Shown in pieces: positions 28,705 through 47,153 of a DNA stretch of 64,000 nt. The notes under the pieces were generated by a model that was given only the letters and a program-made list of their open reading frames with translations, was not told the DNA's origin and ran no database searches. The first letter of the stretch is position 1. The number at the start of each line of letters is the position of its first letter. Origin of the DNA: a virus; the IMG/VR virus record IMGVR_UViG_3300027741_000002, positions 32,001 through 96,000 of that record, one strand, 5' to 3'. Both the position numbers and the translations under genes were made by a program.

Positions 28705-28705
28705 T

Positions 28706-29299: not shown

Positions 29300-29308
29300 T
29301 ATGTCTCC

Positions 29309-32300
29309 TTAGTTCCAGAAAGATGGCTTAAGAATGCGTAGGAATCTTGCATGAACAGCGCCATTTGGCTTCAACATTGCGTCAAGACGCTGATTGATTG
29401 CATCGCGGTAGTTATTTAAGCTTCCCCACTGGGCAATAACCATGTCAAGCTCTTTTCCAGCCAGCTGAATGTTTCCATCCTTAAGACTTTCGCGTAAGTT
29501 ATTTGCTTCATTTCTAAACAATGCCAGCAAATCTTCTTCCTTCATAGCGCGAGTAAGCGCAGGCATTGTTAGATCATAAATCTTGCCGTCGCCTTCACCA
29601 AGTATAGCGTCAAATAGATACTGGTTTCTATCTCCTGGCTTTAACGCAAAAGAAGATAATGAATGGTCAATTGGGAAGATACGAATTTGAGATGGATTGA
29701 CTCCGTCAAGTGCGTAGAGGATGTTTCCATTATGGCGATCTTGATTGTTGATGAGCAGATCGAGAAGAACTACGCGTGCAGCGTCTTCAGGAGTATGCAT
29801 CTTGTTAATAAAATTATCACCGTTAAATGTTACTTTGCTACCATCAAGCGCTACAAGTGTACCGGTCGTGCCGTCATAGACCTTTGATGCAACCCGTGGC
29901 TCGCTGCCGAGAGGAAGTGTAGATCCAGCTTCCTGCATAACAAGAACATTAGGATTATCACTGCTTACTAGCGTGTTGTATGCTCCTTCAAATCCAATAC
30001 CGCGCGCGATATTAGTTGCGGCAATCTCGGAAAGAGGTCCACTAATATCATAGTTAGTTGCTAGATCATCCTTCTTGACATAGAAGCGTTGTCCCGATGC
30101 AACATGAGTAGCAAGCCATGTGTCGTTGTAACCTGACTCATACATGCCAAGACGTTTAATATCAAAGCCTTTAACCTTATTTTGCGAGATGTCTTCTATA
30201 GTAGCACTAGCAAGATCTGTTCCTACGCCAAAGTCGGTAGAATTAAGTAGAGGGTTGTCTGCCTTAGCCTCGGCGTGAAGTGCCTTACGTAGTTGGAAGA
30301 TGTCCTGCATTGGCAGATCTCTTCCTTCCTTAGTTAAAAGTTGTTTTGTAACATATGTATTAAGCGCTGTCTTTGCAGCTGGAGAAAGAACTGCTAGAGA
30401 TCTATTGTTTTGCAGTACGTCTCTGATTTCAGCTAAGTACTGCCCAAGCTCTGAGTTCTTATTGCCAAACTCGTTACTGTTTGCAGTCATGACAAATTCA
30501 CGACCGACGTTAGGCTTATTTTCTTTTGCCTCTATACGCTTACGCGCTGCACGAATCTGATCATAATTTACTGACTGTACTTGCTCCTTGACTGTAGGAT
30601 CAAGTCGCTTGACGCCCATCCAGCCATTTCTTGCCATAAGATCTTTACCGGTCCAGGTCTTTGCACCTGGATACCAACCAACAAGAGCAAGCTCCATAGG
30701 AGTTGGCGTCTTATTTAGATCTAATCCGCCGTCACGAAGTTTAGCCGCTGTTGCTTTTTCCTGTAGACGTTCAATCTGTGCAATTACACCTTTGTCCGTA
30801 GCTACACGTCGCATCAGTCTTAATCGTGTAAATACTTCACTCTCTGCACTGGCAGGAGTTTCCCAGTTAAATCCGTTTAGCGCCCAGACAAATCCACCTT
30901 GGTAGCTTCCTCCACCTGCAGCCTGCACATGAATTTCCTTAACTCCATTGGCGATATACCAATCTTCCATAAAACGGTTATACGCTGTAGCAAATCCAGA
31001 TTTTTTATCCTTAGCGTTATTTATAGCTAGGTAGTTATTCTTTACCTGCCACTCGAAGTTGTTAGCTCCTGTATTAGGATCTACAGCTGATTTACCACTA
31101 ACTGTTCTATTTATCGTTCCGATGCTTCTGCCATTAGAGTCTAAAACATTCATTGCGATACTAAGACTCACGGGCTGATTGCCAGCTTGTAGTTCTTCCT
31201 TTGTTCCGCTTAAGAATACATTAAATCCACCAAATGTTAGCGAGTAGTTATTCTTTCCAAACGTTACGCCATCGCGAACACCGTAGGTATCCTTCATCAT
31301 CGCGTCAAGCTGCTCTTTTTTCTTAGTGACTTCTAAAGATAGCGCTTCTTTTTGTGCTGCAGGAGCCGCACGGAACTCGAGGATAGCTAGTTGATGATCA
31401 ATAGCTGCCTGCTTAATACTTTCAAGAGTTACACGATCTTGAGCTGCCCTAGCAATTTCTCCCGCGCGCAGACCCCAGACAGAGTAGTCGCTTTGTTTTG
31501 CATCGGGATTTGTGAATTCTTTTAGACGATCTGGAGTAGTTCCAAGATCGTTAACACCTTGGATATTTCCTTCAGTTGCAATTGCTCCAGGGTTAAGAAC
31601 CGGTGCGTCAAGGCGTGATGATACATCTGGAACTGGCGGAGGAGTAGGTGCCTGTCGCTGAGCTTCATTAGGAACTGCCTGCTGCGCATCTCCAGTTGCT
31701 CGTACCTTAAGTGCAGAGCGAACTGCTACTGACCCGTCGTCAAAACGCACACGAACATAAGGAATACGTTCACCTGTGCGTGAGTCAATATTTTGAACTG
31801 CGATAACTGTTCCAGTGCGGCCATCACGAGAAGCACGAATACGTGTTCCCTTGCCCATAACCTTACCTGCAATATCAAGAACTGTGTTGTCTGGGTGATA
31901 CCCACGATTTTCTGGTCCCGGGTAGACAGGCGCTGGGTTATTAGCTGCAGGAGAATCTACACTTACTGTCTCTACAGGTTGCGCTACTTCTGGCGCTTGA
32001 CGCTGCCCTGTTGTAGGAGGTCCAGCTTGTGGTGTAGGCGCTTGAGCTGGCGCTGGAGCTACTGGAGTTTCTATAGCTTGACGCTCTCCTGTTGTAGGAG
32101 GGAATCTACGCTCAGCAGCGGGAGTAGGCGCTGGGTTAAGGATAGCAGGACCGGCGACTTCTGCAATTGCGTCGATGATCTCCGACTTGTTTGCCTCAGA
32201 CCAGTCAAGAAGTCCTTTTTGGTCTATTGCATCACGAATCTTATTTGCTGTCTCAGGATCAACTGTGTTACCAGTTTGTTCAATGAGATCTTTAATCATC

Positions 32301-35047
32301 TGTGAATGCGCCTGAAGAGTTGGACTTTCAGAAGACGAAGGAGAAGGAGACGTAGTATCCATATTGTTTGATTCTTTCTTAAGATCAAGAAGAATCTGAT
32401 TTGTATTAACACCTTGATACTGAAGTGCGTCGCGCATTGACTCAATTGGAACTTCAACGGTGATGTTGTCAAATGCTAGAAGCGCAGCGCCTGACCCGTC
32501 GGTGATTCCAGATATAAGTTGCTCGACAAGATCTGCAGTGTAATAATCCTGCGCAAGAATTTGCGGATTGTCTGTGTAGCCATTGTTATCGACTGTAGGC
32601 TGAGATGGCACGTACGCATTTGGATCTGGAATGTAATAGTCTGGGTTTTGGAAGTCAATTGGTAGATTTTCAATAAGCTTCCCTGGCAAAGGCTCAGGTT
32701 TAGCATTAGCGTCTTTTTGGTTTGCAATAGGATTATCGCCAGGCTTAGTTGCGTCTTTAAGTTGACGTATTTCCTGCATTATAGAATCAACAAGCTGTGT
32801 CTCGTCAGCTGAAGGCTTTCCGCCTTGTGCCTCGATAATCTTATTAAGGTTATCATTATTGCCGTTAGCCGAGTCATAGATGTTTGCGATGACGCGGTTA
32901 GGGTCTAATCCAGCTTCCCATAAAGCGTTAAACAGCGCCTCAGCAGGCACATACTCTGCACCTGCGCTAAACTCTAGTTGGCCTGCACCTGAAGGCTGTC
33001 CAACGTTTACCTGCGGAATGTCAACGTTATTTGGAATAGCTGCAGGGTCAACCATATCGTTATTGCTATCAACGTTTGCGTTAAGAATTTCTGCTATGGC
33101 TGCATCTGTAGAGTTCCCCAGCAGCGCCTGTGACAACGCCTGAACAAGTTCCTGCGGAGTAAACTTAGTTGCTAGCTTCTTTGGGTTGTCTGTAAAGTCT
33201 CTGCTTGCTTCATCTACGCGTCCTTGAACATCGTAGTTTGCAGTATTAAGTTTGAATGCTCCATTTGGCGCTGTAAAGTCTGGGAATAGCGCAGGGGCTG
33301 TAGGCGCACTGGTATTAACAACTTTTTCTGCGTTTGACTTATTATTTGAAGGAACAGTTGCAACTTTCTTTACTGCCTTGCTTTTTACAGTCTCTTTAGA
33401 CGGAGTAAACTCAATTGGGTTATCCTTGGTAAACGTCGAATTGAGATAGTCAACTAGACCTGGAAGACCTTGTGTTTCAATCTGGCTCCATGAGTCAAAC
33501 TTCTGTGCGCCACCACGGCCGTCTGTTCCAGGCTCAGGGATCCACCCAGATGCATGCCCGGCGATATATTTACCGTCTCCAGTTAAATACGCAAGAACTG
33601 GATAAGTTCCACCGTCGCGCAATGGAAGTTCACGAGAGTAGTGTGTGTCGTTATTTGGATCACGTACCCAGCCGTCAGGAACTACATTTCCGTTAAGATC
33701 TTTATTTCCAAGTGGTTGAGGCGCAGGCTTGCCTGCGTCAATTGCCTTGTTCTCCTGCATGCGCTGTTCTTGCATCTTAAGGATGTCTTGTGGGTTAATA
33801 ACGTCCTTAGCTGTAGCGCCAGGAATTTTACCAAGAGGAAGTTGACCTTCTGTGGCTTTTGCTTCTTGGCCAGCAATATACTTATCAAATGATGGTTCGT
33901 CCTTAGACATAGCTGCGTTAGCTTCTGCCCAGCTGCTAACTCGCGCAATAGCTTCTCCGGTTGGACGCCCATTTGCGTCTAGACGTAGTACAGAATGTGG
34001 ACGCCCGCTGCGGTCAATGACGACAGCGTAGTTATCGTCTGATATATACATCCCATTTTGATAGTGCCAACCGATTGGCGCGTCTTTACGTGTTGCAGTA
34101 AGCTCCGCTAGCGTAGGAATATTTTTGTCGAGTTGATCTTTAAACGAAGGTTTCTCTGGAGCCGCATGTCCAGGAATACGTGCCTGGTATACCTGGGCGT
34201 TACCACTTTTAATAACATAAAGCCCTGGTCGAAGTCCAGGAACTCCTGATACTTCGATAAGTCCTGAGTCTGCAACAAGTGACGGGCCTTTAGGCGTATT
34301 CTCGATACGAGTATCTCCGCCGGCGCCGATATAGTCTCCGCTGCCAACTTGAATTGAGCCGTCAGGCAAACGGAAACGGAAGTTAACACCGCGTCCCATT
34401 TCAACCCAGCGGCCCTTCTTGTCACGCCACTGTAGAGCAACGCGTGCGCGACGAGCCGCGGACGAGTTTCCGCTGCTAAACGCTGCAATAATAGGTGAAA
34501 GGTTGTCAAGCTTAAAGTATGACGCAAGAAGAGTCTTGTTTGCATTGAGTCGAGCAAACGCATGTTCACGCTCGATAGACCCTGGCATTGCTCCGTGAGC
34601 TGAGGCAACTAGTGGACGAATAGACTCGTCGATGGAAGTATCAGCTGCAATCCACTGCGCGTTCTTTGCAAGAAATTCCTCGGCAGAAAGCGACGCGTTA
34701 AGAGAAGATAGAGGGTGGCCTGCGACTAGCAAATCTGTGTTACTTGTCTCGCTGGCTGTAAATGTCTTTGTTGCAACACTAAGGAAGCGTGATACCTCCT
34801 TGAGGACCGCAAAGTTGCGCGCCTCGTCGTCAAGTGTTGATAGATCTGCAAGTGCACGATTCATTACGATAAGCGCGGCGCGCGGAGTTACATGACGCTC
34901 CTCGGATACCTTAGAGTTTGCATCCTTGACGAGAGATAAGACTTGCTCATGCAAAGAGAAGACAGGTAAAAAGTTACTGTCTTTTTTCTTACGAGCTGCC
35001 TTGCGCTTGAGCATACGCTCAATCTTGTCGTTTAGAGGTGCATCCAT
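29309..35047 (-). CDS. giant head-region protein with C-terminal GNAT-like acetyltransferase and HipA/PI3-4-kinase-like domains
   Basis: RARVALQWRDKKGRWVEMG; SH3/KOW-like segment; KKSGFA...GVKEIHVQA..GGFVWALNGFNW (GNAT); SGYNDT, FYVKK, LSEIAA, DLLINNQDRHNGNIL, IDHSL (kinase). Confidence 0.75.
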   Translation of the reverse strand: MDAPLNDKIERMLKRKAARKKKDSNFLPVFSLHEQVLSLVKDANSKVSEERHVTPRAALIVMNRALADLSTLDDEARNFAVLKEVSRFLSVATKTFTASETSNTDLLVAGHPLSSLNASLSAEEFLAKNAQWIAADTSIDESIRPLVASAHGAMPGSIEREHAFARLNANKTLLASYFKLDNLSPIIAAFSSGNSSAARRARVALQWRDKKGRWVEMGRGVNFRFRLPDGSIQVGSGDYIGAGGDTRIENTPKGPSLVADSGLIEVSGVPGLRPGLYVIKSGNAQVYQARIPGHAAPEKPSFKDQLDKNIPTLAELTATRKDAPIGWHYQNGMYISDDNYAVVIDRSGRPHSVLRLDANGRPTGEAIARVSSWAEANAAMSKDEPSFDKYIAGQEAKATEGQLPLGKIPGATAKDVINPQDILKMQEQRMQENKAIDAGKPAPQPLGNKDLNGNVVPDGWVRDPNNDTHYSRELPLRDGGTYPVLAYLTGDGKYIAGHASGWIPEPGTDGRGGAQKFDSWSQIETQGLPGLVDYLNSTFTKDNPIEFTPSKETVKSKAVKKVATVPSNNKSNAEKVVNTSAPTAPALFPDFTAPNGAFKLNTANYDVQGRVDEASRDFTDNPKKLATKFTPQELVQALSQALLGNSTDAAIAEILNANVDSNNDMVDPAAIPNNVDIPQVNVGQPSGAGQLEFSAGAEYVPAEALFNALWEAGLDPNRVIANIYDSANGNNDNLNKIIEAQGGKPSADETQLVDSIMQEIRQLKDATKPGDNPIANQKDANAKPEPLPGKLIENLPIDFQNPDYYIPDPNAYVPSQPTVDNNGYTDNPQILAQDYYTADLVEQLISGITDGSGAALLAFDNITVEVPIESMRDALQYQGVNTNQILLDLKKESNNMDTTSPSPSSSESPTLQAHSQMIKDLIEQTGNTVDPETANKIRDAIDQKGLLDWSEANKSEIIDAIAEVAGPAILNPAPTPAAERRFPPTTGERQAIETPVAPAPAQAPTPQAGPPTTGQRQAPEVAQPVETVSVDSPAANNPAPVYPGPENRGYHPDNTVLDIAGKVMGKGTRIRASRDGRTGTVIAVQNIDSRTGERIPYVRVRFDDGSVAVRSALKVRATGDAQQAVPNEAQRQAPTPPPVPDVSSRLDAPVLNPGAIATEGNIQGVNDLGTTPDRLKEFTNPDAKQSDYSVWGLRAGEIARAAQDRVTLESIKQAAIDHQLAILEFRAAPAAQKEALSLEVTKKKEQLDAMMKDTYGVRDGVTFGKNNYSLTFGGFNVFLSGTKEELQAGNQPVSLSIAMNVLDSNGRSIGTINRTVSGKSAVDPNTGANNFEWQVKNNYLAINNAKDKKSGFATAYNRFMEDWYIANGVKEIHVQAAGGGSYQGGFVWALNGFNWETPASAESEVFTRLRLMRRVATDKGVIAQIERLQEKATAAKLRDGGLDLNKTPTPMELALVGWYPGAKTWTGKDLMARNGWMGVKRLDPTVKEQVQSVNYDQIRAARKRIEAKENKPNVGREFVMTANSNEFGNKNSELGQYLAEIRDVLQNNRSLAVLSPAAKTALNTYVTKQLLTKEGRDLPMQDIFQLRKALHAEAKADNPLLNSTDFGVGTDLASATIEDISQNKVKGFDIKRLGMYESGYNDTWLATHVASGQRFYVKKDDLATNYDISGPLSEIAATNIARGIGFEGAYNTLVSSDNPNVLVMQEAGSTLPLGSEPRVASKVYDGTTGTLVALDGSKVTFNGDNFINKMHTPEDAARVVLLDLLINNQDRHNGNILYALDGVNPSQIRIFPIDHSLSSFALKPGDRNQYLFDAILGEGDGKIYDLTMPALTRAMKEEDLLALFRNEANNLRESLKDGNIQLAGKELDMVIAQWGSLNNYRDAINQRLDAMLKPNGAVHARFLRILKPSFWN

Positions 35048-35058
35048 CTAGATGATAC

Positions 35059-37113
35059 CTATCCCTTACGCTTCTTTGGGAGTAAATCCGCGTCCTTAGA
35101 ATCATAGAGTTTTGTCGCTAGGGTGTATGCTCGCTCAAACGGGATATCCCCGTCTCTTACACCTCGTAGCCACGCACCGCGTAGCGCAGGGATTGCCTCA
35201 TAACCTAGAGATGAGTACTCGGCCATCGCATGGATAGCGTGCTCTGGTGAGCCGTATTCATCAGCAGTCTTAAGCGCAATAGATAAAAGTTCGTGCTGCA
35301 TTATTGAAGCCTCAGCGCGAGAAGACTTAGGGTGAGCCTTAGGCAATAGATCATTGTCCTGCTTATAGTTTGGATTTGCAGGAGAGCCAGACTTGAGAAG
35401 TTTGAGGAACGCATTAACGCGAGCCATTGCCCAACCATCACGAGTCATACCTGGTCGGTGGCTAGACGAGAACGCGCCTGAACCTCTACGGTAAACTGCC
35501 TTTAGCATTGGAAGGGTTGCCTTACGCCCAGGCTTCGCACCCTTGTTATGAGTTTCTACTTTAGCGCGAAGGCTTGCTTCAGTTCTTGCAGAGAAAACGA
35601 TCTTCTTAGATCCTGCGGCGCTTCCTGGCTTATTTTTCTTTGAGCCGTGAATACGATCTTTCTTTGGAGCTGGGCGTGAGCCTGCAGATGTGATTGGACC
35701 TCCGACTGCCCACGCGTTACACGTGCGTGTCGCGGCGCACTTAAAATCTAGTGCTTCGCAGTAGCCAAGATCTGCTTGCTTGATAGCTGCATCAGCATCT
35801 ACTTGACTTGAGTCTCCTTGTTCTAGTCCTTGTGCGATGCAGTCGAGCATCTTAGGTGTTTGAACAAAAAAGACACAGTTACCGCAGCGACTAGTCTTTG
35901 CCTCTTCAGGAGTTGTTTTCCACTTGTCTGCTTTTTCCTGCCAAAATTCTTCGTTAGGCTCGTTTGGATTCAACGGGCCATAGCCCACGTTGTCAATTGC
36001 GTTTTGACGATTCTTTAAGTTAACTTGAATATCCTGAGTCGCGACAGGGCATGCATCACCTTCACCTGCAGCAACGATAACTTCTCCGTCACCGTTATCT
36101 GCTCCGTCAACGTTAACTACACCGTCAGGGATAACAGCAAAGCGGCACTTGCCGTCGTCTTCAATAGTAGGTGCGATAATCTTGCAAACGCCAGGACCGT
36201 CATACAGGACACAGTTGACGCACTTAACACCGATCTCCTTGTACTCGTTTTCAGCCGCAGGAGTGTACCCTGCCCAGATGCCTGTCTCGTCTTCGTTAAA
36301 CTTTCCGTACTTGTCCGCGATCTCTAGTAGAGCTGCTGCAAGATCCTGCTCTTCGGCAACGATAACTCCTGCTGCTTGAAGAGCTTCAACCCGCTGCTCT
36401 TGAAAAGAGAAATACATATCCTGCGAGGTATACTGTCCGTACTCGTCTGCAGACAGACATTGATTACACACACAACCGGAGTCACATAGACATGTTCCTC
36501 CGTCACATCCTGGACATACACAGCCAGCTGGTCCACAAAGTGGGCAGCCGTCTGCGTCGTCCATAAGCTGCTCAACAACAGGAGTGTCTCCTGCGTCTAA
36601 AAGTTCAGCAGCTTCAGATTTTCCCGGCATACCGGAATCTGTAGGTGTTAAATATGCGCCAATCTGCCAACGCCACTTCTTGTGCATGTCATCACGGTCT
36701 GCGAGGAAGTTGATAACTCCCTGCTCGTTGTATTTAGCAGCAAGATCAAGGGCTTGTCCGATAACTGCAATCATTACATCGTTAGCTGCGTAGAGATCTG
36801 CTAGCATGGAGAATGGGTCGTCTGTAACGTCCATATCCTGTGTCTGGTTAAGATCAATAAAGTCTTGAAGCTTGTAAGGAGCATCATGACCCATCTTTAG
36901 CATAAGCTCTGCCGTAGGATCGATAGACTCGTAGAGATCCTCGTAGATCTCTTGGAAAAACTCGTGAAACTCTGCAAAGTCGCGTCCCTTTACGTTCCAG
37001 TGATGGCCGTGCGTCTTAAAGTACATAGTTACTACGCTGCCTAGAACTACAGCAATCGAGCTGCTAAGCTCCGATCTGTCGGTATTAGTGTCTATGTTTT
37101 GATTTTCGTACAT
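35059..37113 (-). CDS. Dps/ferritin-like domain fused to Cys-rich and further head-associated domains
   Basis: KTHGHHWNVKGRDFAEFHEFFQEIYE..DPTAE..HKKWRWQ (Dps); CPLCGPAGCVCPGCDGGTCLCDSGCVCNQC; two CxNC..C..C domains; LKAVYRRGSGAFSSSHRPG..WAMARVNAF domain. Confidence 0.8.
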   Translation of the reverse strand: MYENQNIDTNTDRSELSSSIAVVLGSVVTMYFKTHGHHWNVKGRDFAEFHEFFQEIYEDLYESIDPTAELMLKMGHDAPYKLQDFIDLNQTQDMDVTDDPFSMLADLYAANDVMIAVIGQALDLAAKYNEQGVINFLADRDDMHKKWRWQIGAYLTPTDSGMPGKSEAAELLDAGDTPVVEQLMDDADGCPLCGPAGCVCPGCDGGTCLCDSGCVCNQCLSADEYGQYTSQDMYFSFQEQRVEALQAAGVIVAEEQDLAAALLEIADKYGKFNEDETGIWAGYTPAAENEYKEIGVKCVNCVLYDGPGVCKIIAPTIEDDGKCRFAVIPDGVVNVDGADNGDGEVIVAAGEGDACPVATQDIQVNLKNRQNAIDNVGYGPLNPNEPNEEFWQEKADKWKTTPEEAKTSRCGNCVFFVQTPKMLDCIAQGLEQGDSSQVDADAAIKQADLGYCEALDFKCAATRTCNAWAVGGPITSAGSRPAPKKDRIHGSKKNKPGSAAGSKKIVFSARTEASLRAKVETHNKGAKPGRKATLPMLKAVYRRGSGAFSSSHRPGMTRDGWAMARVNAFLKLLKSGSPANPNYKQDNDLLPKAHPKSSRAEASIMQHELLSIALKTADEYGSPEHAIHAMAEYSSLGYEAIPALRGAWLRGVRDGDIPFERAYTLATKLYDSKDADLLPKKRKG

Positions 37114-37115
37114 TG

Positions 37116-38840
37116 CTACGCTCCTTCTTGTAGAGCCGGTGGTAGTGGTGGTTCAGGTGTTGCAGTTGGAGCAGGGGCAACGGGTGTTGCTTTGTCCAAA
37201 ATCTGTTGAATCTCTGGAGGTACTGGCGCGGCAGACTCTGCCTGTTGCGCTTCACGCACAGACTTCATAATCTCTGGAGCGATAGCTCCAATCATGGCCT
37301 GGGTAAGCTCTTGTGAAAGAACGCCCTTCTCTACAAGAAGACGAATTGCAAGTTCATTCGCGTCCGGCGCATCGGTAGCTGCAAATCCGTGAGCGCGACG
37401 CCATGCGTCATAGGAGACTGCCATCTTGTCAAAGCCCATGTCAGCATCTGCCGCGCGGTCGTTACGTGTTGAAACTGCGCTTGGGTCATACCAGATGCAT
37501 ACACGGGCTACGTCCTCCTCTACGAAGCCTGCAGCAAGGAGCGCAGGTCGTAGGTAGGCAACTGTAAGAGAATCCGCGATAAGAAGCATGAGAGGCTCGA
37601 TATGCGCCTTGTACAAGTTATCATCGATAGTCTGGGCGTTAGTGTACTTAACGTTTGCTAAACCGGTAATAATATCCTTAGGCACATCAAGCCCTTGAAG
37701 GATACGGTCAAGTACCTTATCGGAGCGATCTGCAAGTGCAGGGTCAAACGAGCGCTCAAACTTAAACTGCTTAATTTTGTCGCCAAGCTCTGCAGGTCCG
37801 CGAATAATAAGTGGAACAACCGCTGAAGCCGAGTCCTCGTCACGAATCGGAGTCGTCATCGCATCCATGAGTTGATCTTCAAACTCGTCGGCTGCTTCCT
37901 CCGCGGTCATGCCAGGATTGAGATCATTCTCGTCATCATACGGATAGTCAGGATCTGGAGACGCGGCAACAGAGAGACCGTCTGGGAGATAGAGAGCGCC
38001 AGCGTTTAGACGTGAGCGAGCTGTCGCGCGGAACGTACGGTTGAGCAAAAGTAGCTCTGAGCAAAGATCAAGTAGACCGCGTAATGATGAATCAGCCTCG
38101 TCTGAGTAGCGTGGGTGAGCTCTCCAGATACGAGCAACAAACGCTGTGTTAGGAAGTTTAACTCCGTTTGCGCCGGAGCGTGAAGACTGCGTTCCAATAA
38201 TGTCGCGGCGTGGAATAACAACGTATGAATTCTTAGAGTCTAGCTGCAACTCGTCTGTTGAGCGAATATCCCAGGACTCCTTAAGTCCTGAGCCCTTACG
38301 CTCGGGGAATTGAACAAGATAGCACTCGCCACTGACTAATAAGTTAAGAGCTGCATCCTTCAAAAGACCAGCTTGTCCGCCATACGCGGAGCTTAGACGC
38401 GCGAGGGCACGTTCAGCTGCGGCCGCGAGACGTGTATCAACTACCTCGCTGATGTTTACAGAGACAGGGTTCTCTCCGGCGTTATCAATAGCTCCTGCGT
38501 ATAAACGGATACGAGATACTACAGATGAAACAAGATTAAAGGCGTACTTGATCTCTCCGATTGCGTCGTAGTATTCCCATGCCTCGGACTGCCAGTCGCT
38601 GGATCCTCCGGAGCGGCGTTGCTTAAACTTCTCAACTTCGCCCTTGTCGTTAATCTGTAACTGAACTGCGGCGGCTGTAAGAGAGCGAGGAGCAGAGTAA
38701 GGAAGTGCCTGGGCATAGGTCTTGCCGTCAAAAACTACTGTCGCAGGCAGAGTGTTACGAGGCGCCTGTGCGGTGATACGACGAGTACGGGCAGGGTTGC
38801 CTTTAGGCTTCTTACTATTATCCTTAGAGAATAGTCCCAC
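37116..38840 (-). CDS. portal protein
   Basis: WQSEAWEYYDAIGEIKY, SRIRLY, VSGECYLV, RIWRAHPR..ADS, ARSRL.AG, SAVVP, GLDVPKDIITG typical of actinophage portals. Confidence 0.9.
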   Translation of the reverse strand: MGLFSKDNSKKPKGNPARTRRITAQAPRNTLPATVVFDGKTYAQALPYSAPRSLTAAAVQLQINDKGEVEKFKQRRSGGSSDWQSEAWEYYDAIGEIKYAFNLVSSVVSRIRLYAGAIDNAGENPVSVNISEVVDTRLAAAAERALARLSSAYGGQAGLLKDAALNLLVSGECYLVQFPERKGSGLKESWDIRSTDELQLDSKNSYVVIPRRDIIGTQSSRSGANGVKLPNTAFVARIWRAHPRYSDEADSSLRGLLDLCSELLLLNRTFRATARSRLNAGALYLPDGLSVAASPDPDYPYDDENDLNPGMTAEEAADEFEDQLMDAMTTPIRDEDSASAVVPLIIRGPAELGDKIKQFKFERSFDPALADRSDKVLDRILQGLDVPKDIITGLANVKYTNAQTIDDNLYKAHIEPLMLLIADSLTVAYLRPALLAAGFVEEDVARVCIWYDPSAVSTRNDRAADADMGFDKMAVSYDAWRRAHGFAATDAPDANELAIRLLVEKGVLSQELTQAMIGAIAPEIMKSVREAQQAESAAPVPPEIQQILDKATPVAPAPTATPEPPLPPALQEGA

Positions 38841-38879
38841 GTGTTACTCCTCGTCGTTGGCTAACGGAGCGTCGAATCA

Positions 38880-39188
38880 TTACTGATCCAGGCGCGCAGT
38901 TATAAGTCCTGCTATAGCGGACAGGGTAAATATACACCCAATTAGAATAGTTATACTTGGAAATAGAGCGTACGAGAACACAATCGGGAGCGCAACCCAC
39001 ATCGAGACGCACCAAGGGCATGTAAAGAAATATCCGATTTGAGAAGAGCGCGGAGGCTTACGGTCCCAGATCCAGTCACGGACTGGAGCTAGGACTTCAT
39101 CTAAGACGATGAGCCGTGTCAATCGGTAGACGAATAAGGCAAGGATGATTACGTGCAAGACAGACATCTTTTCTATCACTGAGTTCAT
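38880..39188 (-). CDS. DUF1360-like membrane protein
   Basis: ALFVYRLTRLIVLDEV..P.R, FTCPWCVSMW; ATG 39188 inferred. Confidence 0.75.
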   Translation of the reverse strand: MNSVIEKMSVLHVIILALFVYRLTRLIVLDEVLAPVRDWIWDRKPPRSSQIGYFFTCPWCVSMWVALPIVFSYALFPSITILIGCIFTLSAIAGLITARLDQ

Positions 39189-39577
39189 TCGGTAGGGTCC
39201 TTTACTGAGTCCATTGTTATGTAAGGGCTCCAAGATCGCAGTCTGCTGCCGCAGGTTGAGCAACCTTGGGTCTTACGAAACGCTATAATCTTCCCTGACT
39301 CCATAAGTGCCTGGGAATCCTGTGTCTTACTTCCTGACCAGTTAAAAAGTGAAATTTTCTCGCGAAAGATTAAGCGCGGTCCTTCGTGGTGATCCGCCGC
39401 TATCATGATGATCTGCTCGTTAAAGTTGTTCTCAAGAATCACGACGCGAACACGCTCGAAATACTTGTTGCCGCTAGGCACGTCCTCGCGGTTTGTCGTC
39501 ACCGTCATAAAGTCCTGGACGATACCAGGCGCAACCGCAACTATGGTTGCAGGGAAGAAATCATGAAGAACCTTCAT
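39185..39577 (-). CDS. hypothetical protein
   Basis: 130 aa, C-terminal GCSTCGSRLRSW, coupled to neighbours. Confidence 0.7.
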   Translation of the reverse strand: MKVLHDFFPATIVAVAPGIVQDFMTVTTNREDVPSGNKYFERVRVVILENNFNEQIIMIAADHHEGPRLIFREKISLFNWSGSKTQDSQALMESGKIIAFRKTQGCSTCGSRLRSWSPYITMDSVKDPTE

Positions 39578-40065
39578 TGTGTAAGTGCCTTATCTACTCT
39601 ACGTTTCATCGCACGATAGGTAACTCCTGAAGCACGAGCTAACTCAGACACGGTAACACCTTTGTTGTAGAGAAGTCCTGCGATGCTAGTAAGCTCCTGA
39701 TTCGCGGTGAAAGAAACGGATGAAGGATTTGTCCTTGCGCGGAAGCGCCGAGCAACGGGTGACAGGCGCGCGATGTGCAACTGCTCGTGGAGCGGGATTC
39801 CTGGAGACCTTGGACGTTTACGTCTAGACTTTGCCTTGGGCTGAGGCGGGGTAGGGGTCGCGGTGATAAACTCGAACTCAGGCGTATCCTTGATAACCCA
39901 ACTGCGAATCGTTGAGCGACGACGCGGTGGCGAGAATGCGTCCGCAATGGACTGAAGGGTCCAGCCTGCATCGTTCAGATCTTTTACACGACGCCAGAGT
40001 TGCTCCTTAGAGAGGGAGGCTAGGAATTCAGCTTCGCTCTTTGGGAGATCGGGTGTATGCGCCAT
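39574..40065 (-). CDS. double helix-turn-helix DNA-binding protein
   Basis: GWTLQSIADAF..RSTIRSW and GVTVSELARASGVTYRAMKRR. Confidence 0.75.
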   Translation of the reverse strand: MAHTPDLPKSEAEFLASLSKEQLWRRVKDLNDAGWTLQSIADAFSPPRRRSTIRSWVIKDTPEFEFITATPTPPQPKAKSRRKRPRSPGIPLHEQLHIARLSPVARRFRARTNPSSVSFTANQELTSIAGLLYNKGVTVSELARASGVTYRAMKRRVDKALTQ

Positions 40066-40249
40066 GAGAATAATGTATCATCTTTGAAGACGAATGTGTA
40101 CAAACTGCGCTTATAGTAATGTGTACAAACGAAGCAGAAACAGTACCTTTTGGTTAAAATGGCTTGGAGGTGAGAAAGGGTTACGTATAGGTGTGGGCAG
40201 TCCGCGAGTTGTCTCCAAGCTTTTTTTAGTTTGCCTTGTGAAAGTAAGA

Positions 40250-40280
40250 AAGACCAATACTCGTTATAAGTATTGGTCTT
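40250..40280 (-). terminator. intrinsic terminator
   Basis: 12 bp inverted repeat AAGACCAATACT/AGTATTGGTCTT followed by T-rich tract. Confidence 0.6.
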
Positions 40281-40297
40281 CCTTTTGTGAAGAAGAT

Positions 40298-40792
40298 CTA
40301 GAGTACTACGCGTACGTGTACGTCCCCTTCAAAGATCTTAATAAAGGTATCAGCGTCTACAGAGCCTGTGACGTCCATTCCTTTGTCAGCCTGGAACTCC
40401 TTGATTGAAGCTACAGTCTCATCGCCTAACCAACCATCCTTGTCAGCGTCAGCGTCCTTGTAACCAAGTTCGATGAGTCGACGTTGTAGATGATGTACTG
40501 TCAATGACTTGCGTGCATAGACATTTTTGTAGATACAGTTAGCAAGGAGTACGTCGTCGACGTCTTCTCCACTGACTGCTTGACTTGGCTGATATGTAAC
40601 CTTAGTCTCTTCAATAGCTACAGGTTCAGGCATAGGCTCAGGCATAGGCTCATCAGCAATTACTTGCTCAGGCTCTACGTCAGGAGCTTGCACTTCTTCC
40701 TCAACTACTTCTACAGCTTCATCTTCAGCCACAGCAATATCTTCTGTGTCATCGATGTCGCCCGCAGGTTCGATGTTTGTTTCTTCAGTCAT
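40298..40792 (-). CDS. acidic protein with C-terminal peptidoglycan-binding domain
   Basis: VHHLQRRLIELGY..DGWLGDETVASIKEFQ..G..VTG.VDADT (PG_binding_1). Confidence 0.8.
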   Translation of the reverse strand: MTEETNIEPAGDIDDTEDIAVAEDEAVEVVEEEVQAPDVEPEQVIADEPMPEPMPEPVAIEETKVTYQPSQAVSGEDVDDVLLANCIYKNVYARKSLTVHHLQRRLIELGYKDADADKDGWLGDETVASIKEFQADKGMDVTGSVDADTFIKIFEGDVHVRVVL

Positions 40793-40818
40793 GTGAATAC
40801 TATATTCCTATCTTGTGA

Positions 40819-41391
40819 TTATGACTTAGGGTATTGGGTTATCCACAAGGTCACCGCAGGCTCTGCCGCAGATCCATCGTAGGCATTAGGACCTAAGCCC
40901 CATGAACCCCAGTCCTTACCTCCAGCAGTCATGTAGTAAGCAGCCTTAGCGTTTGCTACAGGGTCAAGTAGATCAGCATGTTTAGTGATGCCTACCCTGT
41001 CCTGAAACTTAGCTAGACGGTCTACGCCTAGACTACCGATCATGTTGATTTGGAATAGGCCGTATGAATTGTCGCCAGTGCTGGCGTTCACGTTGTGAGA
41101 AGTGGGATGTCCACGTGACTCACGCATGGCAACTGCCCATGCAGTCTTGAGAGCCTTGCCCTCAAAGCCAACAGCCGCAAGCAGCTCTACAAGCTCTTGG
41201 CTTGTTAGCTCTACCGCGTTCTTATATTTAACTAGTGGGTCTACCACGACAGGCGCGGTAACCATTAGTTCTTTTGTATTGATGTCGTCGGCGTAGCTGC
41301 TCACCATAGTGAGCGAGAATACACCAATTGTTAGTGCCGTAATATAGGCTACGGTCGACATTGCTATTCCACGTATTGTGAGTTTTTGCAA
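40819..41391 (-). CDS. lytic transglycosylase (SLT/lysozyme-like) with N-terminal signal/anchor
   Basis: AVAMRESRG catalytic Glu, SYGLFQIN, DPVANAKAAY, WGSW; TTG start after AAGGAGG. Confidence 0.85.
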   Translation of the reverse strand: MQKLTIRGIAMSTVAYITALTIGVFSLTMVSSYADDINTKELMVTAPVVVDPLVKYKNAVELTSQELVELLAAVGFEGKALKTAWAVAMRESRGHPTSHNVNASTGDNSYGLFQINMIGSLGVDRLAKFQDRVGITKHADLLDPVANAKAAYYMTAGGKDWGSWGLGPNAYDGSAAEPAVTLWITQYPKS

Positions 41392-41634
41392 CGCTAGTTC
41401 GCCTCCTTAGGTCGGGGATGGGACAACCCATTGAGTTTCCAATGAGCTTCTTGCTACCGCTATGCTTCTCAAGCTCGCGCTTGTCCTCTACCGCTTGCAT
41501 AGGGCCGGAGATAAAAAGGGATAACATTGTTAGTCCTTTCGTCTCTCCGTAGTAGGCTGTTTGCCTGGTGTTAATAATACCACATAGAAAGAGAAACAGG
41601 CACCCGTAGGTGCCCGTTACCCGCTACTTTTTTG

Positions 41635-41805
41635 CTATACGGTCTGAGCTAGCCCAGCCCAGGCAATCGCAGATAACCCTAGGGCTAAGGCAAGGACGCC
41701 TTTATCCGGGGTTAGAAGCGCAGTGAGTATGGACAGGATGGAAAGGACAGCTGATATAACAGCAGGCCAAATTAGGCTCTGCAGTGTAAGCATTAGTCTA
41801 TCCAT
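41635..41805 (-). CDS. small two-TM membrane protein (56 aa)
   Basis: Manual translation MDRLMLTLQSLIWPAVISAVLSILSILTALLTPDKGVLALALGLSAIAWAGLAQTV; below ORF-track cutoff. Confidence 0.65.
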   Translation of the reverse strand: MDRLMLTLQSLIWPAVISAVLSILSILTALLTPDKGVLALALGLSAIAWAGLAQTV

Positions 41806-41808
41806 GGA

Positions 41809-41994
41809 TTACTTGACCTTACGGGTTTTACCCTTGAGTCTATCGGAGGTATTGCGAATAGGAGTCCCCGAGTCCGCGATGAGCTTACGAGCCTTACCGT
41901 ATGTGATTGATAGCTCTTTAGCTACTTCGTCTACAGACTTCCCTGCGCTATAGAGCGCGGCTGCTTGGTTTGGTGTAACTGTTGCTGTTGTCAT
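41809..41994 (-). CDS. small HTH protein
   Basis: LYSAGKSVDEVAKELSITYGKARKLIADSGTPIR. Confidence 0.8.
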   Translation of the reverse strand: MTTATVTPNQAAALYSAGKSVDEVAKELSITYGKARKLIADSGTPIRNTSDRLKGKTRKVK

Positions 41995-42061
41995 TGTTTT
42001 CCTCTCGTATGTACGTAATCACACTGTATGATTATGCATTTAATTGAGCGTATGGTACTGC

Positions 42062-42514
42062 TCAAGATTTCTTGCTCTTTACAGGCTTTGGCGGGATCTT
42101 CCCATGCTTGTCGCAAAGGGAACGTCCATTCCACGGTCCACGTGGTTTTATGTTGTTATCGCAGTCTGTGCCGTAACCAGCTGCGTCACATTTAATTTTA
42201 GTTCCTTGAGTAAAGTTATTGACCAGCGAAACGATTGCCCGCTTGACAATAGAGCTATCAACCGCAAATCCATTTTCCTGGTGGCATGACCAACACAGGT
42301 ATTCGTTTCTGCGATGTGATGGATCTCGGACTGCGTTTCCCGCTCCACATTTATCACACGGCGTAACCCTTTTTACAGTTCTTGCTTTGTCCCTGTAGTG
42401 CTCTGCACAGAGTAGTTGTTCACCACACTCGTAGACGAGAACGTTTTGTTCTCCGCATTGCTGGCAGTTGTCGTAGACGTATATCTTGTCTCGCTGGACG
42501 GTTCCCTGTGTCAT
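42062..42514 (-). CDS. Cys-rich multi-zinc-finger protein
   Basis: CQQC..CAEH, CDKC..CWSCH, C..C..CDKH. Confidence 0.7.
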   Translation of the reverse strand: MTQGTVQRDKIYVYDNCQQCGEQNVLVYECGEQLLCAEHYRDKARTVKRVTPCDKCGAGNAVRDPSHRRNEYLCWSCHQENGFAVDSSIVKRAIVSLVNNFTQGTKIKCDAAGYGTDCDNNIKPRGPWNGRSLCDKHGKIPPKPVKSKKS

Positions 42515-42558
42515 AGCTAGATCCTAATCCTTATTCGGTATCTTGTAAACTATTAACC

Positions 42559-42771
42559 CTATTTCTCACTGGACCCCCACTGAACGCGAGGTTCACCACG
42601 GAGAATCGAGGCTGAACAGTCTGAATGGTTAATGTGAAACGGGGCAAGACGAAGAACCGACTTACCTACCTTTGGCATCTGGTCAAACGGCTGTGACTCG
42701 TAGATGTAGTGTCCACATTTGGAACAGATTTCGTACGTGTCAGCTGTGCGCTTGACGGGCTTGCCTAACAT
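42559..42771 (-). CDS. hypothetical protein (CxxC)
   Basis: 70 aa ORF coupled to upstream gene. Confidence 0.55.
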   Translation of the reverse strand: MLGKPVKRTADTYEICSKCGHYIYESQPFDQMPKVGKSVLRLAPFHINHSDCSASILRGEPRVQWGSSEK

Positions 42772-43055
42772 TACTTGTCACCCTTTGGACCAACCACACC
42801 TAGAAGCGTTGTTGGGCTCTTGCGCTTTAGGCGAAGGTTAGAGAACTCTTCCTTTGCGATAAGCTCTGTGCGAAGTGAGAAGAACCAAAGAGGTCCTGAG
42901 CCAGCTGCAATCAAGAACGCAGATGCTAGAAATGCGATGAGACTTGGATAGATAAAGAAAGATTGAGCGGCATACGGAATCCAAGCTAAAGCTAGGAGAC
43001 GTAGAGCTACCGTATATCGGCGGTATTTATGTCCACGGAATGTGCTGATTTTCAT
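42771..43055 (-). CDS. membrane protein
   Basis: Two hydrophobic segments. Confidence 0.65.
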   Translation of the reverse strand: MKISTFRGHKYRRYTVALRLLALAWIPYAAQSFFIYPSLIAFLASAFLIAAGSGPLWFFSLRTELIAKEEFSNLRLKRKSPTTLLGVVGPKGDK

Positions 43056-43138
43056 TTTGCGTCCTTTCGGTTACAGTGCTTGCAAGGATTCTTTTTTGCT
43101 CCTCGCGGTTTCTTTCCCCAACAGTACATACATACCAT
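43052..43138 (-). CDS. 28 aa zinc-finger microprotein
   Basis: MVCMYCWGKKPRGAKKNPCKHCNRKDAK directly after promoter and the ACGACGAAAGGA RBS motif; ATGA overlap with next gene. Confidence 0.6.
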   Translation of the reverse strand: MVCMYCWGKKPRGAKKNPCKHCNRKDAK

Positions 43139-43201
43139 TTTCTGTTCCTTTCGTCGTTTGGCGTACAGGTTAATTATAACAGGTAGATCAGGATAATGAA
43201 A

Positions 43202-44596
43202 CTACCTAACGCGGAAGGTGTTTCTCAGACCAGGGATCTTTCGGCCAGCTGGAGACTTAGCCGTAATCTTTCCGCCTACGAATCCGGCTGGTGGTTTAAT
43301 GAGTAGAGCGGTAAGGGCATGGACCAGCGCATCGACGCGGTCAGGTGATTTGCCTTCGCCTGGAATCCACGAGGTCATCTGGGACTCGAGGTCCGCTAGG
43401 TACCCTATGTGGTGCACGCGGTTCTGCTCGTAAGCTAGCGTGATTGGCTCGGCTCGAAGGGCCTTGCCGTATTTGGAGTGAACCTCAAGTACCTTAACCG
43501 TTGGGTCAATCGTGTTGATGGCGTTGCGAACAAGCGCACCGCCTTGGTTTACCTCCGCGATAACGGGGCAACCCCACTTACGCGCCATGGCTACTACCTT
43601 GTTTGCCCACACATCCGGTGAGCCTAAGATTGAAGCATCCTCAAGTACCCAGCTCTGACGTTTGTAAAGATCTCTATCGGCCGTTGCAGCTACAACAACT
43701 ATGCCGCATTCATCTCTTGGATTTTCAGCTACCGATGGATCAACACCGATGCAACGAAGCGGTGCGCCTTGTGGCATAACAAGTTCGCGTGTATTATCGA
43801 TAAGTTCTACTGTCCAGAGTGCTCCCTCAACGTCTGAAAGCATCTCGCCGTAAAGTTCCTGCGCAGCTAGACGAGTTCCTTCGTACACTCCAAGAATTCC
43901 TTCCATGTAGGCCGCAGAAAGGTTTCCGCTGTTGTCCATGGTTGAACCTTTAGTAATAATAACCTTGCCGGGATTTGTATCGGCCTCACGTAAAAGATCA
44001 TATAGCAACGGCACGCGCTTCGGCGTTGTTGTAATCATAATTTTAGGATTTTGACCAAGACGAGTACCAATACGTAAGTTTTCAAATGCGGTAAGCCCAG
44101 CTCCATCTGGAGTCTGACGCCAAGCGGCAACCTCGTCTCCCCAAGCATGCGTGAATTGAGGACCACGAAGAGAATCTGGCTCATCGGCAGTAAAGCATGT
44201 TGCCGTATTGCCGTTAGGCCAAGTCAGTCTTCGCTTTGACGGTTCGTACAACGGACGCTCACTAGGAGGCGTTACATTGATAATACCTGATTCACCTTCA
44301 ACGATAACGTCTCGTACGTCAGCAGCTGTACGAGCTACCAATGCAAAACGGCGTTGACCGGTGTTTGTGTATTTAGCTTCTTCTCTTACCCACTCTGAAG
44401 CCGTACGAGTTTTACCAGCACCGCGTCCTGCGAGGTACATCCATATGTTCCAGTCATCACCTTGAGGACGCTGTTGTTCAGGACGTCCCCAGAAACTCCA
44501 GTCCCATTGAAGAGCGTCTGGATCTAGACCTGCTAGAACCTCTGCCTTTTCTTCATCAGACATTGCCGCAATGATTTGTGCTAGACTCTTTCCCAT
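43202..44596 (-). CDS. terL: terminase large subunit
   Basis: Walker A AGRGAGKT, LRGPQF, Walker B WGDEVAAW, TTTPK, nuclease IGVDPS, AEVNQGG, SPDRVDALVHA. Confidence 0.95.
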   Translation of the reverse strand: MGKSLAQIIAAMSDEEKAEVLAGLDPDALQWDWSFWGRPEQQRPQGDDWNIWMYLAGRGAGKTRTASEWVREEAKYTNTGQRRFALVARTAADVRDVIVEGESGIINVTPPSERPLYEPSKRRLTWPNGNTATCFTADEPDSLRGPQFTHAWGDEVAAWRQTPDGAGLTAFENLRIGTRLGQNPKIMITTTPKRVPLLYDLLREADTNPGKVIITKGSTMDNSGNLSAAYMEGILGVYEGTRLAAQELYGEMLSDVEGALWTVELIDNTRELVMPQGAPLRCIGVDPSVAENPRDECGIVVVAATADRDLYKRQSWVLEDASILGSPDVWANKVVAMARKWGCPVIAEVNQGGALVRNAINTIDPTVKVLEVHSKYGKALRAEPITLAYEQNRVHHIGYLADLESQMTSWIPGEGKSPDRVDALVHALTALLIKPPAGFVGGKITAKSPAGRKIPGLRNTFRVR

Positions 44597-44626
44597 ATGT
44601 ACTATGGTACCTTATAAAAGGAAAAG

Positions 44627-45550
44627 TTATACGGGTACGTTGCTAATATCTGAATATATTTCTGATACTACAGTTGCCCACACCTTTGGTGTGTGGTCGA
44701 AAGGTTGATAACCACCGGCTCCTCCAATAAGTACTCTGCCTCTTGCATGCTTGTTAGCGATGTCCGCAATGATGCGAGCAGCAGCTCGATACCCAGGATA
44801 ATCAAAGTTAAGACCAGACAATGGATCTGAATGATGTGCGTCAGCTCCGGTAGCTAGAAGAATAACATCTGGCTGAATATCATCCGCAAGCAGCTCGATC
44901 TCTTGCATCGCATCCAGAAATTCTACGTCACCATCTCCGTTAGCTAATGCCCAGTTGTATACTCCATTTTCTGGCTCGTTCTTAAGACCAGTTCCCGGGA
45001 AGATTCCACCTTGGTGGATACTTGCCGTAACTAGATTTCGATACGGGCGCAGGATATTCTCAACGCCGTCACCATGATGCGCATCCCAATCAATGTACAT
45101 AGGCTTAAGCCCTGCAGCCATAAATAACTTAGCAACTAACGCCATGTCGTTGAATACACAAAAACCAGAGCTATGGTCATACTGCGCATGATGCTTAGCT
45201 CCTTGCGGATTGAAGGCTACCTGAGCTTCTCCTGAAAGAATCTTTTCATACATGCGAATAGTCCCCGCAGCCATCTCAAGAGCAACGGCTCCAAGATGTA
45301 GCTGGTCAGGATACCATTCACCGCAGTGACCTTTATCTAAAACCTTAGAAATGTATTCATCAGAGTGAACATGATTTAACAAGTCTCTGTCTGATTCAGA
45401 CGCTGATGGCTTAACCATTACTGGTTCTAAGTCTTTAAGAAGCTCTACCGCAAGCTTAGCACGAATTGGATTAGTTGGGTGACTACCGTCACCATTTCCT
45501 AGCTGCCAATCAAGATAGATATCGTCGTATGCGACGTGTAGCTTACTCAC
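44627..45550 (-). CDS. histone deacetylase family (AcuC-like) Zn-dependent deacylase
   Basis: HPTNPIR, VHSDEY, GAKHHA..SSGFCVFND, IDWDAHHGDG, SIH, GADAHHSDPL, GAGGY; GTG 45550 start preferred. Confidence 0.92.
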   Translation of the reverse strand: MSKLHVAYDDIYLDWQLGNGDGSHPTNPIRAKLAVELLKDLEPVMVKPSASESDRDLLNHVHSDEYISKVLDKGHCGEWYPDQLHLGAVALEMAAGTIRMYEKILSGEAQVAFNPQGAKHHAQYDHSSGFCVFNDMALVAKLFMAAGLKPMYIDWDAHHGDGVENILRPYRNLVTASIHQGGIFPGTGLKNEPENGVYNWALANGDGDVEFLDAMQEIELLADDIQPDVILLATGADAHHSDPLSGLNFDYPGYRAAARIIADIANKHARGRVLIGGAGGYQPFDHTPKVWATVVSEIYSDISNVPV

Positions 45551-46064
45551 TTGCTTTGTCCAACGTTCGAACATACGCTTCAAACTCACCGTTACATAAA
45601 ACATATGAGGTTCGCTTAGTACGAAGAAGCGTGATAGCTTCATCAGGAGTATAACCAGCTTTGATAAGAACAAGAGCCGCAGTTAAACCAGAGCGGTTAA
45701 GCCCAGCTTGACAACGAATTAAAACCTTCTTACCAGCCTTCCACTTGCTATGCGCAAATGAGACAGCTGTAGCTAGAGACTCTGAGTCAATATGGTCTAC
45801 GTCTGAATCATAAAAACCAAAGCGTAGTTCCTCAACCATCCAGTCAACTGGATTTGCCCATGCGTATAAAGTTACTACCGCATCGAAATCTTTCTTTGTG
45901 ATTTGTTTAGGCGCGTCTAATACTGCTGACTCTTCAATTGTGTCCAGGTCATCAGTTCCGCCTACCCATAAACCAGGCAAGATCTCGCTGTGCAATGGAA
46001 AGTCCCAGCTGTCTAACTGATGTGCTGGTGCATATCCTTCGTTTGTTTCAATGAGCTTTGCCAT
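45543..46064 (-). CDS. dual-specificity protein phosphatase
   Basis: SEILPGLWVGG, FYD acid loop, P-loop VLIRCQAGLNRSG, AITLLRTKR..N..F. Confidence 0.9.
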   Translation of the reverse strand: MAKLIETNEGYAPAHQLDSWDFPLHSEILPGLWVGGTDDLDTIEESAVLDAPKQITKKDFDAVVTLYAWANPVDWMVEELRFGFYDSDVDHIDSESLATAVSFAHSKWKAGKKVLIRCQAGLNRSGLTAALVLIKAGYTPDEAITLLRTKRTSYVLCNGEFEAYVRTLDKASE

Positions 46065-46134
46065 TGTGTTTCTCCTTTTGTCATTTTGTCATTTAATGGT
46101 ACTATTATATCAGGATAAGTTACCTGCTAGTAAC

Positions 46135-46701: not shown

Positions 46702-46728
46702 GGAATTCCTCTCCAGGTAAAACGCCTA

Positions 46729-46765
46729 TCCAGGCGCTAGGAAAACTGTATCCTAAGCGCCTGGA
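46729..46765 (-). terminator. hairpin between genes
   Basis: TCCAGGCGCT/AGCGCCTGGA inverted repeat. Confidence 0.45.
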
Positions 46766-46772
46766 CTACGTC

Positions 46773-47108: not shown

Positions 47109-47153
47109 GTTATTCCTTCCGTCGCAGTTATAGTACTATTATATCAGGTTTTG

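Follow-up and report, generated by a model that had tools for sequence, protein, structure and literature searches.

A single element may encode both the enzyme that places a mark and the enzyme that removes it, as is the case for DarT-DarG and for the Legionella pairs SidM-SidD and AnkX-Lem3. A second point of reference is the class of polyvalent proteins of phages; the main text of Iyer et al. (2017, PMC5512222) counts GNAT and kinase domains among their protein-modifying modules and predicts that these proteins are delivered together with the DNA. Giant phage cargo proteins of this sort are thought to rewire the host at entry, and almost none has been tested. Here we describe a phage in which both themes may meet. 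The window, i.e. the whole stretch of DNA analysed, is 64,000 nucleotides (nt) long and corresponds to bases 32001-96000 of the 129,506-bp virus record IMGVR_UViG_3300027741_000002, which has direct terminal repeats and is a large lake phage. Its head module encodes a giant protein of 1912 amino acids (aa; 29309..35047; this and all features located below are on the minus strand), a candidate cargo protein of the polyvalent type, with a GNAT-like domain and a kinase-like domain in its C-terminal part. A separate locus encodes a phosphatase and an HDAC-family deacetylase. The initial annotation took these four activities for two matched pairs of writers and erasers. Based on our comparison of relatives, the deacetylase is probably a functional partner of the GNAT-like domain, since the two co-occur in two phage lineages at unlinked loci, while the phosphatase, judged by gene content, is not tied to the kinase; therefore there is at most one writer/eraser pair.

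The giant protein is like the polyvalent proteins of PMC5512222 in that unrelated catalytic domains are combined in one protein encoded among structural genes, and a cargo architecture with GNAT and kinase domains is already of a known kind. In the polyvalent proteins of that main text one GNAT family typically stands beside an ADP-ribosyltransferase, as it also does in P0160, a relative whose GNAT-like domain continues into an ADP-ribosyltransferase domain. Other details differ. The kinase described there is without the whole C-terminal subdomain and belongs to phages of Verrucomicrobia, Chlamydia and Bacteroidetes, whereas the domain in the window is a complete one, similar to CotH, PI4KII and HipA. 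Neither 'phosphatase' nor 'deacetylase' appears anywhere as a word in that main text, and the window phage encodes both enzymes. Among open-access main texts we found no publication which pairs such a cargo with a phage deacetylase.

Within the window's own clade, a record was considered informative if it covers both regions (G001-G004, G006-G010, G012, G015, G019, G020 and G023). The deacetylase and the GNAT-like domain are found together in all 14 of these records, and indeed so are all four domains, with the modules of G004 and G009 strongly diverged. As these records make up one lineage, they demonstrate retention and not coupling. Of 21 module-bearing records, 17 gave no deacetylase or phosphatase match. 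They were set aside as uninformative and not counted as negative: by its coordinates, each of these contigs stops short of, or right at, the place where the genes would be expected, with <13 kb of sequence upstream of the module. Four records with no module match (G005, G011, G013 and G014) are fragments or break off within the giant gene and are uninformative as well. Searches with the GNAT and kinase module and a close alignment returned the same 10 short viral loci, and a more diverse alignment was then used.

Two relatives are without the GNAT-like domain, and in these the deacetylase is either absent or remodelled in its active site. The first is the Actinomycetia phage DSL-LC01, a genome assembled from a metagenome and, in terms of gene order, the closest of the named relatives; an actinobacterial host is predicted for it according to PMC10611076. 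It has the same gene order and a giant protein of 3289 aa, with which the window's giant has only the N-terminal part in common, and it contains none of the four domains. The second is a sister clade, clade B, which was found via an odd variant of the deacetylase and includes a complete genome of 135,336 bp. In all 16 of its loci (L152-L167) the deacetylase homologue reads DWDVNAGDG in place of the canonical DWDAHHGDG: Asn stands for the His of HHGDG and Ala for the next His, and there is a loop insertion of ~14 aa (e.g. L164:9995-10939). The His replaced by Asn corresponds to the one that binds zinc in HDAC8. The clade B homologue may have been retooled or may have become a pseudoenzyme. In the clade B giant protein of G038 (L169:304-10038; 3245 aa) a DRAT-like ADP-ribosyltransferase (PF07357, 6.2e-12) is found where the window has GNAT and kinase; cargo domains have been swapped between close clades.

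Outside the clade, 24 records were picked only by the GNAT-like domain and 19 further ones only by the deacetylase. In the GNAT-picked set the deacetylase occurs in 4 of 24 records (G044, G045, G064 and G041), or in two of the nine that are >=90% complete; the four enzymes have canonical motifs and lie 13-30 kb from the GNAT-like gene. In the deacetylase-picked set the GNAT-like domain occurs in 10 of 19 records and in all six that are >=90% complete, which are phages of 56-62 kb; the nine negatives in this set are 42-84% complete and neither help nor hurt. No kinase part was found in the 56-62 kb phages, and a search for Pfam DSPc in five near-complete records of this lineage, in which the controls worked, gave no match. 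When these phages are compared with those that have only the GNAT-like domain, nothing but the domain itself is common in its vicinity. A canonical HDAC-family gene is rare in phages (6 of 50,697 GenBank records matched). Taken on gene content, a canonical phage deacetylase thus appears to come nearly always with a GNAT-like cargo domain, and the reverse does not hold. The two genes occupy separate, unlinked loci, which in the window are ~10-16 kb apart.

The idea that erasers accompany their writers among relatives is therefore borne out in part: the deacetylase appears largely to track the GNAT-like domain (14/14 and 6/6), but the phosphatase occurs without the kinase. In clade B an intact CQAGLNRS phosphatase is present in all five long records, one of them complete, and the GNAT/kinase module was found nowhere in these five records, nor in the two giant head proteins of the clade even with all search filters off. 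Phosphatase homologues are further present in 24 isolated actinophage records; the module was absent from all four of these phosphatase-bearing isolates that were checked by profile, and tblastn with the giant protein gave no match in any of the 24. The reverse situation is seen in G043, a complete 94-kb phage with two GNAT-like genes and a kinase-like gene, and with no deacetylase and no phosphatase match. In this phage (G043:80000-90000, L254) tandem stand-alone GNAT-like genes of 289 and 315 aa stand ahead of a gene of 487 aa that contains the catalytic region of the kinase, so that the same two domains are separate genes there. It is because clade B and the four actinophages have the phosphatase without the module, and G043 the reverse, that we regard the phosphatase as not tied to the kinase: presence and absence of the two do not track each other across lineages. 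The 24 GNAT-bearing records outside the clade gave no phosphatase match, an empty result which, for this search, shows nothing. As for the surroundings of the phosphatase homologues, that of Mycobacterium phage Rey (L148) follows an RtcB-type RNA ligase, and that of Rhodococcus phage NiceHouse (L149) lies two genes before a tRNA nucleotidyltransferase; these neighbours hint at a nucleic-acid substrate in those phages.

The GNAT-like domain comprises residues ~1245-1490 of the giant protein (30578..31315). Modelled alone, it reaches a predicted local distance difference test score (pLDDT) of 82.9, and its best fold matches are NatD (Z 8.0, root-mean-square deviation (rmsd) 4.1, 153 residues aligned), HAT1 (7.9) and GNA1 (7.9), values which the tool itself rates as middling. 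Of the 50 fold-match rows, about 40 are named acetyl- or acyltransferases of the GNAT type, and Foldseek places AAC(3) first (2.7e-4, probability 1.00), followed by TacT and Naa60. Both motifs on which the initial annotation had relied, KKSGFA (residues 1348-1353) and GGFVWALNGF, are situated within the domain. In GNATs the loop that binds the pyrophosphate of acetyl-CoA has the form Q/R-x-x-G-x-G/A. In the window the loop is K-K-S-G-F-A, with K replacing Q/R, and is invariant in seven close relatives; the consensus of the family is QGxGFAT, with the Gly invariant in 33 diverse sequences. We take this [QK]-x-x-G-x-A loop to occupy the acetyl-CoA-binding position of GNATs. Because the hit list is uniform and because of this loop, GNAT is the best reading of the model despite the middling Z values, and the earlier assignment stands. 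The domain has its core fold in common with NatD, HAT1, GNA1, AAC(3) and the TacT/AtaT toxins, and unlike them it has a long insertion bearing a conserved PTPxExAxVGWxPGA segment. In the homologous domain of P0157 the Pfam GNAT model reaches E 0.0078 (16.9 bits against a cut-off of 20.7).

On its own, the GNAT-like domain is widespread in phages, where it forms the C-terminus of proteins of many different sizes. In Microbacterium phage Jera it ends the 'capsid maturation protease' encoded beside the portal, and head-region proteins of many unrelated viral contigs carry it. One relative of the giant protein, P0019, has in addition a canonical Pfam GNAT domain (PF00583, 1.9e-5; residues 75-133) upstream of the GNAT-like and kinase module; some members of the family therefore carry two domains of the acetyltransferase type.

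The last 683 residues of the giant protein, which comprise both domains, are conserved over their full length in 92 giant proteins (1084-3317 aa; 35-100% identity), and homologues of them occur in 464 cluster representatives as well. A phmmer search of PDB sequences with the whole giant protein returned 0 matches. An AlphaFold2 model of these 683 residues, built with 38 sequences, has a mean pLDDT of 89.7 and a predicted template modelling score (pTM) of 0.80, and in this model a bilobal kinase fold is present in the C-terminus, in agreement with the kinase domain of HipA/PI3-4-kinase type originally proposed for the end of the protein. This domain covers residues ~1599-1912 (29312..30253) and contains the FYVKK, DRHNGN and IDH motifs. 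Its half of the model (model residues ~370-683) matches CotH best (Z 13.3, rmsd 4.6, 261 aligned), followed by PI4KII-alpha (12.4), CtkA (11.7), Fam20 (11.3), HipA (11.0) and MavQ (10.8); all 50 rows listed by Foldseek for the module are PI3K or PI4K chains. By analogy with known kinases we take K1658 to be the catalytic Lys, E1674 the helix-C Glu, D1770-R-H-x-x-N1775 the D-x-H-x-x-N loop and D1794 the metal-binding Asp. The domain looks catalytically competent, since K1658, E1674, D1770, N1775 and D1794 are invariant in 13 sequences of only 24-35% identity. Compared with the atypical kinases CotH, PI4KII-alpha, CtkA, Fam20 and HipA (PDB 5jda, 4pla, 3akj, 5xom and 5k98), the fold is common (Z 11-13.3 over 222-261 residues) and the Lys, the Glu, the D-x-H-x-x-N loop and the metal-binding Asp are kept, whereas sequence identity is 10-17% and the phage domain makes up the C-terminal end of a 1912-aa protein. 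The only Pfam match of the giant protein, to PI3_PI4_kinase (PF00454), is sub-threshold (22.4 bits against 27.1) and limited to residues 1756-1797, and no HipA family is listed among the Pfam matches of the giant.

The two genes proposed as erasers are what they were said to be. The CX5R phosphatase of the dual-specificity type (45543..46064; 173 aa) matches Pfam DSPc (PF00782) at 1.4e-9, with 38.3 bits against a cut-off of 33.5, as well as phrog_10650, and has the signature CQAGLNRS, conserved in clades A and B. The HDAC-family zinc deacetylase or deacylase (44627..45550) gives a full-length match to Hist_deacetyl (PF00850) of 3.9e-53 and 181.1 bits (cut-off 27.9), and its motifs GAKHHA, DWDAHHGDG, GADAH and GGAGGY are intact and conserved. 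Like classical zinc-dependent enzymes of the HDAC/AcuC/HDAH family it has the His-His dyad, the Asp-His-Asp metal motifs and the catalytic Tyr, and unlike them it is compact (307 aa) and phage-encoded. Its relatives in the PDB include HDAC6, HDAH and HDAC2/8, and a profile search of the PDB settled no subclass. Judged by the sequence and by the length of the relatives, which the resulting 307 aa resemble, the start is most likely the GTG at 45550. With this start the overlap with the phosphatase stop, which is real, amounts to 8 nt and not to the ~130 nt assumed before. The arrangement is common among relatives found by the deacetylase: the phosphatase is directly upstream in 76 of 80 such viral loci, the other four being cut at the contig end, and the HslV-like gene described below is present in 70 of the 80.

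The genes of both loci are all on the minus strand, and furthest upstream comes a series of small genes that follows a repeated promoter-like motif. From there the order is HslV-like peptidase, phosphatase, deacetylase, large terminase subunit (terL), small open reading frames (ORFs) with two cell-wall enzymes, and portal, followed by a Dps/ferritin fusion, the 1912-aa giant, a 197-aa ORF, a 1717-aa protein, the major head protein and tail genes. The initial annotation had the giant lie between portal and protease. The position in the head module is right; however, the Dps/ferritin fusion intervenes on the portal side, and on the other side the 197-aa ORF comes before the 1717-aa protease-like protein. 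The HslV/proteasome-beta-like peptidase (46135..46701; 188 aa; Pfam Proteasome 5.3e-9, phrog_1040) was not found in clade B; it starts M-T-T, which makes a catalytic Thr at the N-terminus possible. The terL gene (43202..44596; Pfam Terminase_6N and Terminase_6C) begins 30 nt after the deacetylase stop, so the pair is indeed immediately before it. The portal protein (37116..38840) matches phrog_776 at 8.9e-109. The fusion between it and the giant gene (35059..37113; 684 aa) consists of Pfam Ferritin (1.9e-14) and DUF5824, and parts of this fusion turn up again in head modules, namely those of G041 and of the 56-62 kb lineage. The second giant head protein (23593..28746; 1717 aa) matches phrog_859, phrog_18402 and phrog_29860; its strong PHROG matches are to portal, head maturation protease and virion structural protein, and Pfam gives none. 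The major head protein (21412..23463) matches phrog_777 at 6.6e-81. A search of GenBank phages with 43202-46114 found no close nucleotide relative.

An extended -10 promoter-like motif, CCTGATATAATAGTAC, was reported at 46099..46114 in front of the phosphatase and deacetylase pair, and our motif scan agrees: with <=2 mismatches allowed the motif has 9 copies, of which this is one, and every copy is on the minus strand between 46099 and 58222; 0.01 are expected by chance. The copies are confined to the upstream small-gene region, with 0 in the structural genes, and the last of them precedes the run of phosphatase, deacetylase and terL. The motif is a putative promoter. A general promoter and terminator scan of 28000-47500 gave a number of sites not above that in shuffled sequences, and showed no terminator-like site between deacetylase and terL. 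Short stretches of the giant gene, the deacetylase, terL and the HslV-like gene are represented in metatranscriptome contigs from four lake-water RNA libraries; contigs of this kind cannot reveal transcription, strand, level or timing, DNA may be present, and no conclusion is drawn from them.

In our opinion the observations are best explained if the giant is a cargo of the polyvalent type, the deacetylase a partner of its GNAT-like domain and the phosphatase a separate activity, and we give this a probability of roughly 45%. The giant is most likely capsid cargo, given the gene position and the published polyvalent class; an injected protein is plausible on the same analogy. It would be packed into the capsid, delivered with the DNA and modify host targets. 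The HDAC-family enzyme would take off the acyl mark set by the GNAT-like domain, once the phage has entered or else in the producing cell during synthesis of new cargo. The GNAT-like domain may act on protein, on tRNA-linked amino acids or on a small amine; GNATs of all three kinds are among its fold matches. The phosphatase would act independently, with host phosphoproteins or nucleic-acid ends as its more likely targets.

Several facts weigh against this explanation. Seven of the nine near-complete GNAT-bearing phages have no deacetylase, and phage Magritte, one of the six GenBank matches, has an intact deacetylase and no module; the rarity of the deacetylase in phages as a whole also counts here. 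The two lineages with co-occurrence share some head genes, so common descent with joint loss is possible, and the number of independent events is small, about two lineages. As to the domain itself, no Pfam GNAT model matches the giant protein at E up to 0.1, the fold scores are middling, and the substrate could be a small molecule. Finally, neither a MuF nor any other known packaging domain was found in the giant. One may go a step further and propose that reversible acylation is employed by phages of two or more lineages: a head-delivered GNAT-like domain would write the mark on a host or phage target and an HDAC-type enzyme under an early-type promoter would erase it, and where the cargo domain has been exchanged, as in clade B, the deacetylase would be retooled; the mark would then act as a self-limiting pulse or serve the self-protection of the producing cell. 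We regard this extended proposal as distinctly unlikely.

The most serious competitor is that there is no link between the two loci. The HslV-like, phosphatase and deacetylase genes would then form a cassette for host takeover or counter-defence that strips regulatory marks of the host, the targets of the giant would be different ones, and the co-occurrence would simply be inherited. Indeed the three genes of the cassette stay together in 70-76 of the 80 loci, ~10-16 kb separate the proposed writers from the erasers, other phages have each of the four domains alone, and cargo domains are swapped between clades, as the DRAT-like ADP-ribosyltransferase of clade B illustrates. This would not account easily for the fact that a second lineage again combines a rare canonical deacetylase (6/50,697) with a GNAT-like domain that is just as rare, the two being unlinked there, nor for a zinc site which is altered just where the GNAT-like domain is missing. 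We consider an absence of any link somewhat unlikely.

Two narrower explanations concern the substrates. GNATs of the SpeG/SSAT type acetylate polyamines, and HDAC-family amidohydrolases take the acetyl group off again. Accordingly, the GNAT-like domain and the deacetylase might act on a small molecule such as a polyamine, with a tie to DNA packaging beside terL, which the deacetylase gene abuts in the window. The fold lists do include SpeG, SSAT2 and aminoglycoside and sugar N-acetyltransferases, and the PDB relatives of the deacetylase include HDAH-type amidohydrolases and small-amide hydrolases; but the same lists are led by protein N-acetyltransferases (NatD, HAT1) and also include tRNA-acetylating toxins, and the deacetylase fits no assigned subclass in the PDB profile search. 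We find a small-molecule substrate improbable. The other explanation is that the phosphatase is a nucleic-acid end phosphatase serving RNA repair and not a protein phosphatase. Some enzymes with the dual-specificity fold act on RNA 5' ends, and the neighbours in Rey and NiceHouse would fit such a role; in the window and its clade, however, its neighbours are a deacetylase and a peptidase gene rather than RNA repair genes, and the neighbours in PhinkBoden and Wildcat are unrelated to RNA repair, which leaves RNA repair with similarly poor odds.

The full two-mark circuit of the initial annotation, in which injected GNAT and kinase writers are opposed by deacetylase and phosphatase as dedicated and timed erasers, is very improbable: all four activities are present and look intact, they occur together in the 14 informative records of the clade, and the two eraser genes overlap by 8 nt behind a repeated promoter of the early type, but only the GNAT/deacetylase half finds support in co-occurrence, whereas the kinase/phosphatase half is contradicted by the intact phosphatase without kinase module in the five long clade B records, by the four profile-checked actinophages that have the phosphatase and no module, by the kinase part without a phosphatase match in G043, and by the 56-62 kb lineage, which has GNAT and deacetylase and neither of the other two.

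The comparative pattern, drawn from about 70 records, thus narrows the original claim, and the phosphatase deserves to be studied on its own terms. What is left is one candidate pair. If a partnership of the GNAT-like cargo domain and the deacetylase is true, it would be the first virus-controlled reversible acylation of cell proteins in bacteria, comparable to the effector and metaeffector pairs of Legionella. In DarT-DarG, SidM-SidD and AnkX-Lem3 the two enzymes are encoded by adjacent genes or their relationship has been shown experimentally, whereas the genes of the window pair are ~10-16 kb apart (13-30 kb in other lineages) and the link between them is a comparative one.

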